A stretch of DNA of 64,000 nt. Origin: Gammaproteobacteria bacterium. GTDB lineage: Bacteria > Pseudomonadota > Gammaproteobacteria > S012-40. Position 1 is the first letter of the stretch, and every line of letters begins with the position of its first letter. Below, in pieces: positions 21,847-24,800 of the stretch. Made by a program: the position numbers and the translations under genes. The stretch lies in the NCBI GenBank assembly GCA_029883265.1, contig JAOUJM010000001.1:10511-74510 (forward strand). The letters run 5' to 3'. The notes beneath the pieces were generated by a model that worked only from the letters and a program-made list of their open reading frames with translations, was not told where the DNA came from and made no database searches.

Positions 21847-24800
21847 TTATTTAAACGCGTTGATAAAATATTGCATATCGTGCAAATCCACAGGGTCCAA
21901 ATAACTTTGCCATGGCAAGGGCTGTTTCGCTTCATTTACGGCCGGTACGGCAATACGAGTGCCTGCGGCTTCTGGCATTTGTCCGGGGCCAAAACGATGC
22001 CAGCCAATGTCCCTACCATAAGATACATCATTAAGTGCCATAACAGCCGCGAGTAAATTTTTTGGGACTGTACCCCATTGGTTGAGGACGGAGTCCACCA
22101 CTGGACTAGCCTGGAGTGTGCTCAATATTTCACCCGGCGTATAGAATGCGTAAACATTTTTCTTTAAGTGATTCCGATCCATTCCATAGCGCTCAATTGT
22201 ACCATCACTGAGTCCTGCCGCGTTAAAGGTAACCGCACTGGATTTCAACCTGCCAGCTTGTGCCGAAGCAATGCCGCCACCGAGGGAGTGACCGGTAAAG
22301 GTTAGTGGTGATGAGCCTAACGCTATTTGAAGATCAATTGCAAGATTGATCCCAAATTCATATTGGGTCGAATTGAAATCGGATCCTTGAGCAATACTTG
22401 CTACTGCATCTTTAACCGCTTCATGCCGGCCCAATTTCGTATCCGTTCCTCGATTGGCGAATATAAATTCGCTTGTGCGATAATTAAAATAGAGTGCGCC
22501 TTGGTAGCCACTCTTCTTATCTACAAAATTTTCAGGTTTCATATCCAGGACATCAATAAAATCCCTACCCATGCGGTAAATATCCTCAGTGACTTTCTTT
22601 GGTTCCTTTCCGGTGTATTCTTGATAAACATCGTCAGATACCATAGCGTTTTCATACCAATCAAGGCTTCCACTAAAGTCCAGTCTGATTGGAGCGGCAC
22701 TAGCAAGCTGCGAGTTATATAGCGTTCCGTTTTCATCAACTAGCTGTCCGTTCTTGAATGTGAGTATCGGTTTGGTTTCAACGGCATCGGATGATTGTCT
22801 ATAAGGAATTTTGCCTGGGGCAGAGTTTTGGACGCTTACCTGGCCATACCCATTATACGTTTTACCGCCATTACGAATAAGATTGCGACCTGGCTGGATT
22901 CCCCCAAATAGCGGCAACTCACCCAAAGCAGATTTCCAAGCATCCTCACCAGACACGCCTTTGCGAATAGACTTGGTGTAGTGTTTCTTAATCGCCTGTC
23001 TTTGTCGGTGGTCGTTTATTTTCAACTCATCAAGTTTGTTATCAAACTTTTTGGTCGACTGCTCAGCACTAATATATCCCGACGCAGCACTACTTAGTGC
23101 CTCAACAGCAACCGTCCGCCAGTCCGGCCGGTAGTCTTTCAGAGTCATGGAGTTAACGGCTATGCGGCCAACTCCAGTTAACGCACCACGTATCGCATCG
23201 CCTGCAACACCCGCGAAACCCCATCCATCAACTTTCCCAACGTTGCTTGGTAATGAAGATGTGACTCCACCCACTAATGCGCCAACCGCTACATTCGCGA
23301 ACAGATTTCCTGCTTGGCTATTGTATTTTTTACGCTGCTCAGTTGACTCCATGGCCATCGATAAGCCAGTCGATATAAGTGCTCGTCCCGCACCTTGTAG
23401 TGCACCCTTAACAACCCCTCCTCCTGTCTGATTCAATCCAGGTATTTGTGATATGATCGCGGCGATTGTCATTGATTTAACAATTTCTTCCTCGTCAATT
23501 TCATCGATGTAACCAACATTCTTCATGTATTTCTGTATGGCATACGAGGTCATTCCGGCAGCAATAATCGCCCCTTGCGGACCAAACACTATAAAAGCAG
23601 CAATAGATATGACAACAGAAGCAACATTCATCCAAAATATTTCAGACTTCGAGGGTTGATTCCTTGCAGGCATGCTTGGGTCCGTACTTCCAATTATCTC
23701 TCCCGGACTATAAGGTTTGAAGGTATCGGCATTGTTATGAATGTTTGTGACAACATTCGGAATGATTATGGATATTCCAGGTGTTAAATCAATATTGGTG
23801 ATATTGTTTGCGTTTGCAATCACATACCAAAGACTAGCATCTCCCCATACTTTACCTGCAATCGTTTCCAAAGTGTCACCTTGCACAACGAGGTATTCAC
23901 TGGCTGTATTCGCAGGATAGTTAGCACTAATGGCTTGATAATTTTGATCAAAGTCTGCTGAAATAACTCGATTCTTCCCTCTTTTTTCGTTATCTGCAAT
24001 CTCCTTGTTTGATAGTCGCGACTGGGCAAGTATTTGTGTATAGTCGGTTTCACCGGCACCTCGGTTGGATACTTCACCAATACCCCGTCCATTAAGATAG
24101 AAATAGCGGTTTACATCGTAATTTGTATTATCGATTTCATTACGCATAATGATTCGGCCGTCGGCATCAACCGTAAACTCAACTCGGCGCTCATATTTGG
24201 TGCCATGTAGTGGTGAGTTGGAATCATCCATTCTCATCAAGTGTCCATTTTGGTCATAATAAAGGTGAGAATACCCGTCAACAAAACCACGTGAATTTAC
24301 ATCCGACCTACCAACACTCTTTTTTGCAGAATCCCAATAGCTATAGAAATAGGAATTCCTGAAATTCTTTTGTTCCTCAATGCTCTTTACTTGATATGAG
24401 ACATTCTTTTCAGCTAGATCTAAACGATCTATTTCACGATAGGTGTAATCGTTATGAATTGTTGACTGCTCTTGCAAATATAGAAATTGATCCTCAGAAT
24501 TTTCCACTCTTTTACGATACTCAATACGAGAGATACGACTATCCAGATCATAGCTATAGTCGTATTGTTGTACAGACTGGGGTGGAATTGTGGTAACAAC
24601 AGTTTCTATATCTGGGTCATATAAATGAGAGGAGCTCGTTCGACCTAGCGCATCTAGCAAGCGCCGAGACACTAAATTTTTGTCTTCAACATTATCGACT
24701 ATTTTTCCGTGTTCAACAGTTTCTAAAATACCATTTTTTGTATATCCATATCGTTCGATCATAGTCGTATTCGCGCGAATATAGTTAACGCCAATTCGCT

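Follow-up and report, generated by a model that had tools for sequence, protein, structure and literature searches.

The arrival of new toxin tips at polymorphic toxin loci, and the transposase-peppered orphan arrays found there, have so far mostly been explained by homologous recombination with loose cassettes. In the engineered fusion transposons, such as TnphoA, Tn5-lacZ and mini-Mu, a sequence without start codon or promoter abuts an open transposon end and is expressed only after an in-frame, correctly oriented insertion, the host gene supplying the expression and export signals. The IS66 family of insertion sequences includes IS66, IS679 and ISRm14, and its transposition reportedly leaves an 8-bp target duplication. 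Here we describe a 64,000-nt stretch of an uncultured gammaproteobacterial metagenome-assembled genome (MAG; assembly GCA_029883265.1, contig JAOUJM010000001.1, positions 10,511 to 74,510; "the window" below), in which an IS66-family transposon with a toxin/immunity cassette, E2, lies inside a giant polymorphic toxin gene whose open reading frame (ORF) runs through the right inverted repeat (IRR) of the transposon, and in which a sibling element, E1, carries a different cassette. Our reading, to which we assign a probability of about 0.68, is that E1 and E2 belong to a small IS66 clade bearing a start-less toxin cassette at the inner edge of the IRR, and that E2 has fused in frame with its host gene. 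The material represents one lineage, comprising this MAG and related metagenome contigs.

At contact-dependent growth inhibition (CDI) and Rhs loci, a new toxin/immunity pair replaces the old one, the old pair is left downstream as an orphan, and arrays of such orphans accumulate (PMC4927057, PMC3967940, PMC3482391). Such arrays have been observed to hold transposase genes among the orphans, and one proposed model is "integration into cdiA, displacing the original" (Ruhe et al. 2016, PMC4927057). Passenger genes have been mentioned for IS66 relatives (PMC12888890, PMC7371123), as is an 8-bp repeat for an IS66 member (PMC12898284). In Enterobacter cloacae, a type VI secretion system (T6SS) phospholipase effector, Tle, is paired with the ankyrin-repeat immunity protein Tli (PDB 7UBZ; bioRxiv 10.1101/2023.03.28.534661). 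Our full-text literature searches returned no description of a transposon whose translated end links a toxin cassette with the toxin gene that hosts it.

E2 and its insertion in a giant toxin gene

The right end of E2 is the 23-mer GTAAGCGTCCAAAACTCTGCCCC, which occurs in two exact copies in the window, at the right ends of E2 and E1 (Table 1), has an imperfect inverted partner (20 of 23 positions) at the left end of each element, and found no match in shuffled sequences. The terminal repeats of both elements begin with GTAAGCG, the hallmark of IS66, and E2 is flanked by a perfect 8-bp duplication, CTGGCCAT. The inverted partner and the target duplication bear out the first-pass annotation, made from the sequence of the window, in taking the 23-mer for a genuine IS66-type right end. 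The genes tnpA, tnpB and tnpC are intact in both elements and all score above the curated NCBIfam cut-offs, with 384 bits in E2 and 382 bits in E1 for TnpC (NF033517, cut-off 180), 100-102 bits for TnpB (NF033819, cut-off 50) and 62-72 bits for TnpA (NF047593, cut-off 28); TnpC is of the IS66 type also in its zf-IS66, LZ and C-terminal domains (Pfam).

Frame 1 of the IRR, read inward, encodes V S V Q N S A P and has no stop over 330 codons in E2 and over 251 codons in E1, frame 2 running into an immediate stop (G-TAA) and frame 3 into a stop within 7-12 codons. That the 23-mer encodes the peptide VSVQNSAP at both of its positions, as had been proposed, holds for two exact copies in the same frame.

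The host gene of E2 encodes a protein made up in bulk of RHS/YD repeats (RHS_repeat, E 9e-69 and 5e-47), with DUF6531 at the N-terminus and LysM domains. Its last conserved part consists of LysM, a transmembrane helix at about residues 5785-5815 and a Gly-rich region, and this module defines a family of giant proteins with 980 representatives (E<1e-10), many of them 4-7 kaa long, in which 270-650 variable residues follow the conserved module. When the protein is aligned with 16 long homologues, the conserved part is seen to end near residue 5980; the E2 insertion falls at 6054/6055, just within the variable tip and about 75 residues beyond the end of the conserved delivery module. The insertion is in sense orientation and in phase 0, within a zone of about 825 nt between the conserved module and the old toxin domain of a 19-kb gene, which now reads ...TYNGYGQ-VSVQNSAP-lipase. 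When E2 and one copy of the duplication are removed in silico, a continuous ORF of 6,350 aa is obtained (...NGYGQ joined to EVDLPL...) that ends in a TNT domain. The displaced TNT region was thus in phase with the giant gene before the insertion, and it now lies orphaned beyond the left repeat of E2, together with its probable immunity gene. The claim that E2 forms an in-frame, correctly oriented fusion with a host toxin gene, with the repeat as coding linker, is therefore upheld by the restored ORF.

These observations show that E2 transposed as a single 4,107-bp unit, leaving the 8-bp duplication, and that its landing swapped the TNT tip for a lipase tip, the old tip and its probable immunity gene being orphaned past the left repeat. 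We hold this structural and historical account of E2 with high confidence. A source that is a MAG does raise the prospect of a repeat-induced chimera joining a toxin gene to an insertion sequence, and the repeat is a breakpoint of some contigs (L001 stops after 99 nt of the element, and L014 begins at the element's outer end), but the E2 junctions are 100% identical in the independent assemblies L011-L018, which come from other samples and assemblers. L013 covers E2 in full together with the sequence on either side, differing at 1 position in 4,361 nt; L011, L012 and L014 reproduce the IRR side, and L015-L018 the left side. ENA and Logan each contributed two of the samples concerned and JGI one, the second Logan sample containing the left junction only. 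The source samples are JGI 3300022221/3300022223, ENA ERZ27296342/-354/-366 and SRR7132771/SRR7132593. Moreover, a chimera would give neither a perfect 8-bp duplication nor a seamless reconstructed ORF, and misassembly, which we consider extremely improbable, was rejected. Three further contigs were set aside: L004 is 100% identical to the window and is not independent, and L007 and L019 repeat the present context of E1.

Two further observations concern the repeats and the giant gene. The displaced fragments stay open outward through the left repeat (KVRSLGRL...; 18756-18817 and 6847-6868, minus strand), a GTG lies within the left repeat, and E2 also has a TTG at 18817, so that translation of the old tips by read-out from the element would in principle still be possible. 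An IS66-like relic end, GTAACCGTGCAAAACTCCCCACC, is found a short way upstream of the giant gene, at 41963-41985 (minus strand) inside an ORF at 41878-42183 (minus strand), in whose frame it reads VTVQNSPP, similar to the VSVQNSAP linker; it differs from the right repeat at 5 positions and from the left repeat of E1 at 4, with about 0.02 such matches expected by chance.

Start-less cassettes and related elements

The cassettes appear to share one layout, in which a start-less C-terminal toxin domain would extend in frame 1 from the inner edge of the IRR and be followed by an immunity gene with its own ribosome-binding site. The E2 toxin, with 322 aa beyond the linker, is now the C-terminus of the giant protein. 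It matches the PDB sequence of a "T6SS lipase effector", shows weak Pfam matches to Lipase_3 and Thioesterase, and has the GxSxG motif in the form GHSLGG; its homologues carry PF26363 ("Phospholipase-like"), and several distant ones are labelled RHS-, PAAR- or VgrG-associated by their sources. The co-oriented ankyrin gene that lies 24 nt downstream is, from its sequence and position, a candidate neutraliser. The E1 toxin has no Pfam match, but the model of its core (AF2, pLDDT 80) gives weak but consistent Foldseek matches to GH23 enzymes and lytic transglycosylases, and the protein matches phrog_3108 (E 1e-27) with an invariant E-S pair in the alignment; to judge from the modelled fold, it is probably a peptidoglycan hydrolase. 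PDB sequence searches were empty for the E1 toxin, for the toxin of the related element L003 and for the fragment of a toxin that adjoins E1. For the toxins of E2 and E1, homologues are at most 33-47% identical and none has the linker, so they furnish no further examples of fusion.

A scan for start codons preceded by a Shine-Dalgarno sequence detected none where the cargo toxins of E1 and E2 begin, and the same scan found such starts for the giant gene, for tnpA and for the immunity genes. Two in-frame codons are caveats to the start-less claim: codon 18 of E1 is an ATG, which no Shine-Dalgarno sequence precedes, and codon 90 of E2 is an ATG with a weak AGGA before it. With these two codons and codon 63 of E1 (see below) as reservations, the scan agrees with the first-pass view that the cargo toxins are in phase with the repeat and lack a convincing start. 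Terminator prediction gave none between the giant gene and the E2 cassette, and promoter scans gave nothing above shuffle expectation.

E1 had been regarded as a second copy of the same transposon, which needs correction: the DNA backbones (6847-9106 in E1 and 18733-20995 in E2) are 86.7% identical, the TnpC proteins 88% identical, and the cargo is different, making E1 a sibling. Among E1, E2 and L003, the homology of the backbones ends near the 3' end of tnpC and at nucleotides 22-23 of the IRR, and the variable cargo therefore corresponds to 21045-22816 in E2 and 9186-10477 in E1. Neither element is a compact insertion sequence of about 2.5-2.7 kb with transposition genes only; with 4,107 and 3,654 bp and a toxin/immunity cargo, they are cargo-bearing IS66 derivatives and not plain insertion sequences.

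E1 is without a target-site duplication, being flanked by CAGTGATA on one side and TGGAACTA on the other, and its right repeat sits 5 nt past the stop codon of a 220-aa ORF. We read the missing duplication as the result of a later rearrangement, which, if it took place on the IRR side, would explain the present unfused state of E1. The left repeat adjoins a truncated toxin fragment whose sequence resembles the very C-terminal end of a Janthinobacterium lividum RHS core protein (E 8e-16); after it comes a small ORF that has a Shine-Dalgarno sequence. Modelled with AlphaFold from its single sequence, this fragment had a pLDDT of 34 and no usable fold. Its phase with respect to the repeat equals that of the fragment that E2 displaced (CGC TTA Cxx), which, given an 8-bp duplication, would imply that E1 originally also entered a toxin gene in phase 0.

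Related elements were found in metagenome contigs. In L003 (ENA), TnpC is 66% identical, the right repeat differs at 1 position, and a different cassette is present whose orientation and phase are those of E1 and E2 (frame 1, reading from the repeat inward). Its toxin, of 281 aa, matches over its C-terminal ~100 residues the very end of a PAAR-like T6SS effector; next come the presumed immunity protein, which has a weak SUKH-1 match, and three further genes. In L001 (JGI), the same chromosomal flank as in L003 adjoins an exact IRR and 76 nt of the E2 lipase gene, which indicates that repeat and toxin move together and can land outside toxin genes. This flank holds a CRISPR array with the 28-nt repeat TTTCTAAACCGCGTACTCAGCGGATAAC and csy1-4 beyond it (L001 100-360, L003 5517-6000), and in both contigs 23 nt separate the array's first repeat from the right end of the element; the L001 and L003 samples have older spacers in common, and the spacers nearest the element differ. 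The two contigs thus share an identical outer junction with different cargo and transposase, reflecting either independent insertions at one site or replacement in place. L002 is a truncated remnant at yet another site.

Five contigs (L005, L006 and L008-L010) hold more distant IS66 elements with other ends or geometry and no comparable cassette. In L008/L009 and L010, whose TnpC proteins are 45-47% identical, the elements lie within or beside Rhs/YD-shell loci in different geometries, and a broader association of this IS66 clade with Rhs loci is suggested. L005, from the same JGI sample as L001 and L002, has an IS66 tnpC 61% identical, with a DUF6973 protein downstream of it. Other searches were negative: E2 had no megablast match in plasmids and E. 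coli genomes, the repeat pattern had 0 matches in genome contigs and 0 in viral contigs, a TnpC-based scan of genome contigs returned no relatives, and the relatives found by tblastn of TnpC against plasmids were at most 41% identical and uninformative.

The cassettes diverge exactly at the inner edge of the 23-mer, and L001 and L003 combine one outer junction with different cargo, as would be expected if the 23-mer were a junction for cassette exchange by homologous or site-specific recombination, comparable to VENN or to the core/tip boundary of CdiA and Rhs proteins, with the IS66 genes incidental. Such a junction is, however, difficult to reconcile with a 23-mer that starts with the IS66 hallmark, has an inverted partner beyond tnpA, forms in E2 a pair bracketed by the perfect duplication, and also occurs beside a CRISPR array, outside any toxin gene. 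In addition, the linker was absent from all 150 representative homologues of the giant protein searched, and tblastn of the 1,200 residues before the linker gave no match in the rest of the window, where no orphan is homologous to the giant gene upstream of its tip. The junction is consequently not a native recombination motif; a native VENN-like junction was rejected on these two grounds, and cassette exchange at the 23-mer is considered very improbable. For a cassette-bearing transposon, as we read E1 and E2, the arrival of the cassette at the inner edge of the IRR was considered in terms of a composite from a solo repeat, an intramolecular rearrangement, or homologous exchange between elements.

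Possible selection for fusion and its rivals

If the reading of E1 and E2 as carriers of start-less cassettes is correct, the cassette would be expressed as a toxin only after an in-frame insertion of the kind seen in E2, and the fusion protein would be made and delivered. Insertion itself appears untargeted, with selection presumably picking out rare productive events, and the common orientation and phase of three unrelated cassettes would then reflect selection for fusion competence. Beside a CRISPR array or at the present site of E1, the toxin would be silent and could decay, with the immunity gene perhaps remaining useful. The evidence that counts here is the presence of three unrelated cassettes in one orientation and phase with the repeat, the lack of starts in the toxins as against their presence in the immunity genes, the landing of E2 in sense and in phase 0 within its narrow zone, and the implied history of E1. 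All cargo and displaced ORFs examined are toxin tips (the E2 lipase, the L003 toxin with its PAAR-like match, the TNT domain and the RHS-matching fragment).

Several observations weigh against this reading. In that frame the left repeat, too, is free of stops (VSV[P/L]NSAP), and a 7-codon stretch is open by chance in about 70% of cases; the open frame of the right repeat therefore carries no weight and in itself is no evidence of selection. As an argument, the earlier proposal that an inverted repeat kept as an open frame indicates selection for fusion-competent insertions is accordingly weak. The E1 toxin has a possible internal TTG start at codon 63 with GGAGG before it. In the toxin phase of E1, a TAA lies six codons upstream of the right repeat, leaving the element unfused. 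L003 has an in-frame TAA 34 codons past the repeat, so this copy is not fusion-competent now, and the stop is followed by AAGGAG-CCA-GTG, a possible GTG start preceded by a Shine-Dalgarno sequence; its right end lies 23 nt from the first repeat of the type I-F CRISPR array, and both L003 and L001, beside the same array, are unfused. No empty-site allele was found among the assemblies, L018 starting inside the left repeat. There are only three cassette types, one directly observed fusion and one lineage, and the chance probability of three cassettes in one phase is only about 0.04-0.1.

Delivery of the new tip is also an assumption. The giant protein has DPxG[LI] matches only at residues 2657 and 3331 and none near the C-terminus, where the LysM, transmembrane and Gly-rich module precedes the tip in place of the Rhs DPxGL cleavage motif, and the 10 ORFs scanned upstream of the giant gene include no T6SS genes, the neighbours being TPR, DUF6973 and flagellar genes.

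Two checks named in the first-pass annotation are touched by these data. The open frame to be looked for in related elements is matched by the third cassette, that of L003, which has the same orientation and phase and a repeat with 1 difference, but not by its stop codon 34 codons in. Among the insertions, E2 is in phase, as the implied original insertion of E1 would have been, but E1 today, L001 and L003 are unfused. The interpretation given in the first-pass annotation is, as a whole, partly supported.

Part of the same evidence is compatible with an accident, in which an IS66 element trapped an orphan module and happened to land in frame in a gene tolerant of insertions, the fused tip perhaps being non-functional. 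Orphan toxins lack start codons anyway, the equal openness of the left repeat and the unfused copies (one with a stop codon) would be unsurprising, the sample is small, and the distant IS66 relatives in or beside Rhs loci, with their other geometries, suggest that these loci simply tolerate insertion sequences. Chance alone, on the other hand, would place three unrelated cassettes in the same orientation and phase with a probability of about 1/216 if treated naively, or about 1/36 when conditioned on the first, and it would also have to account for an E2 insertion in sense and in phase 0 within the permissive zone of about 825 nt in a 19-kb gene, for the second in-phase insertion that the phase of the fragment beside E1 implies, and for a fused allele with an intact lipase ORF being the only allele across the assemblies of five samples. 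We regard an accident as unlikely.

Within the reading that we prefer, the view that fusion has been selected for stands at roughly even odds. A more far-reaching view postulates a clade of IS66-derived "toxin-tip transposons" that would depend on translational fusion for their life cycle, with the IRR as coding linker, with start-less cassettes exchanged precisely at its inner edge, with rare in-frame insertions re-arming giant toxins, and with displaced tips passing into orphan arrays; this we advance tentatively, as falling a little short of an even chance.

Surroundings of the locus and comparison with known systems

The features of the locus are listed in Table 1. Between E1 and E2, the array of small orphan ORFs looks like a graveyard of orphan toxin and immunity genes; among its members are the fragment of an LHH-type HNH nuclease (12987-13433) and an ORF that resembles nucleotidyltransferases (12024-12419), and no repeat remnants were found in it. 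Elsewhere in the window, a direct repeat of 450 nt (98.9% identical; 41065-41514 and 46980-47429) duplicates the 3' end of a TPR gene (47101-48189) and brackets a 5.9-kb segment with a DUF6973 protein (44815-46089) and two large unannotated ORFs, and a second direct repeat, of 152 nt (96.7% identical; 957-1108 and 1548-1699), lies downstream of E1. A flagellar cluster (FlgI, FlgA, FliF, FliI, rod or hook proteins; 48000-64000, minus strand) is located upstream of the toxin locus.

Table 1. Positions in the window of the elements E1 and E2, the host gene and associated features
Feature	Position	Strand	Evidence or remark
E2, IS66-family transposon with toxin/immunity cassette, inserted in giant toxin gene	18733..22839	+	4,107 bp; inverted repeat pair, duplication
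Target-site duplication, left copy	18725..18732		CTGGCCAT
Target-site duplication, right copy	22840..22847		CTGGCCAT
E2 left inverted repeat	18733..18755	+	GTAAGCGTCCTAAACTCCGCACC, 20/23 vs IRR
E2 tnpA	18817..19173	+	NCBIfam NF047593, 62 bits (cut-off 28)
E2 tnpB	19140..19523	+	Pfam TnpB_IS66 E 2.8e-33; NCBIfam NF033819
E2 tnpC, DDE transposase	19554..21044	+	DDE_Tnp_IS66 E 5e-85; NF033517 384 bits
E2 candidate cargo immunity gene, ankyrin repeats (Tli-like)	21095..21823	-	own Shine-Dalgarno AAGGTGAAGCATG
E2 cargo toxin, Tle-like lipase C-terminal domain (GHSLGG), without own start	21847..22816	-	PDB 7ubz_B E 4.6e-11
E2 right inverted repeat (IRR)	22817..22839	-	translated as VSVQNSAP within giant ORF
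Giant YD/RHS-repeat, LysM, transmembrane polymorphic toxin gene	21847..41001	-	6,384 aa; last 330 codons from E2
Predicted junction peptide of fusion protein			...TYNGYGQVSVQNSAPGK...
Empty-site sequence (E2 absent)			AACGGGTATGGCCAGGAAGTGGATTTACC
Displaced original C-terminal region, TNT NAD-glycohydrolase domain	17834..18724	-	296 aa; TNT E 1.9e-20
Probable immunity gene of displaced TNT toxin	17560..17820	-	weak Imm59 match
Small orphan toxin/immunity-like ORFs, ~14, between E1 and E2	10506..17500	-	
E1, sibling IS66-family transposon, different cassette, now unfused, without target duplication	6847..10500	+	3,654 bp
E1 left inverted repeat	6847..6869	+	
E1 tnpA 6931-7290, tnpB 7278-7634, tnpC 7647-9185	6931..9185	+	NCBIfam
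E1 cargo immunity candidate, hydrophobic N-terminus	9194..9748	-	184 aa; GTG start overlaps toxin stop codon
E1 cargo toxin, probable peptidoglycan-lytic, lysozyme-like fold	9745..10477	-	open from IRR
E1 right inverted repeat	10478..10500	-	identical 23-mer
Truncated Rhs-type C-terminal toxin adjoining E1 left repeat	6041..6846 (ORF 6041-6844)	-	RHS match, phase comparison

With IS66, IS679 and ISRm14, the elements share the tnpA-tnpB-tnpC order, a DDE transposase with zf-IS66 and LZ domains, imperfect repeats beginning with GTAAGCG and the 8-bp duplication. They differ from the family in their length, 3.65-4.1 kb as against about 2.5-2.7 kb in typical members, and in the cassette of 1.3-1.8 kb (3.3 kb in L003) between tnpC and the right repeat, with an ORF that passes through the repeat. 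Transporter insertion sequences and unit transposons similarly mobilise extra genes within the repeats of an insertion sequence backbone, but their known passengers are complete and have their own signals, whereas the passenger of E2 is a fragment completed by the target gene.

The host protein resembles the Rhs/YD polymorphic toxins in its YD bulk, conserved body, variable C-terminal toxin and adjacent immunity gene, and departs from them in having no C-terminal DPxGL motif. The cargo of E2 recalls the Tle/Tli pair in its match to the lipase effector, its GxSxG motif and its ankyrin immunity neighbour, but the E2 lipase is a transposon-borne C-terminal domain on a YD-repeat/LysM giant and not a stand-alone T6SS effector. 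As with the orphan modules of CDI and Rhs loci, a new tip has come in at the E2 locus, the old pair is orphaned downstream and an orphan array is present; the difference is that integration is here explicit, in the form of transposition with a target duplication and a translated repeat. Orphans exchanged by homologous recombination keep homology upstream of the tip, whereas by tblastn those of the E2 locus have none. The locus is thus a concrete case, with the target duplication as proof, in which a transposon put a toxin/immunity pair into a coding sequence with its own end translated. Should this be general, toxin arsenals could spread horizontally independently of homology, orphan arrays could be the footprints of successive insertions, and the transposon end would be constrained both as a transposase-binding site and as a coding sequence.

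A functional parallel is found in the laboratory. Like TnphoA and similar transposons, E2 has a start-less coding sequence at a transposon end that is open in one frame; those are constructs with IS50 or Mu ends, whereas E2 is natural, is based on IS66, and brings both a toxin and an antidote. E2 is a natural analogue of the fusion transposons, a cargo-bearing IS66 derivative in a YD-repeat polymorphic toxin, and the existence of a clade of toxin-tip transposons, if true, would add a transposition-based route to toxin diversification, the natural counterpart of TnphoA.

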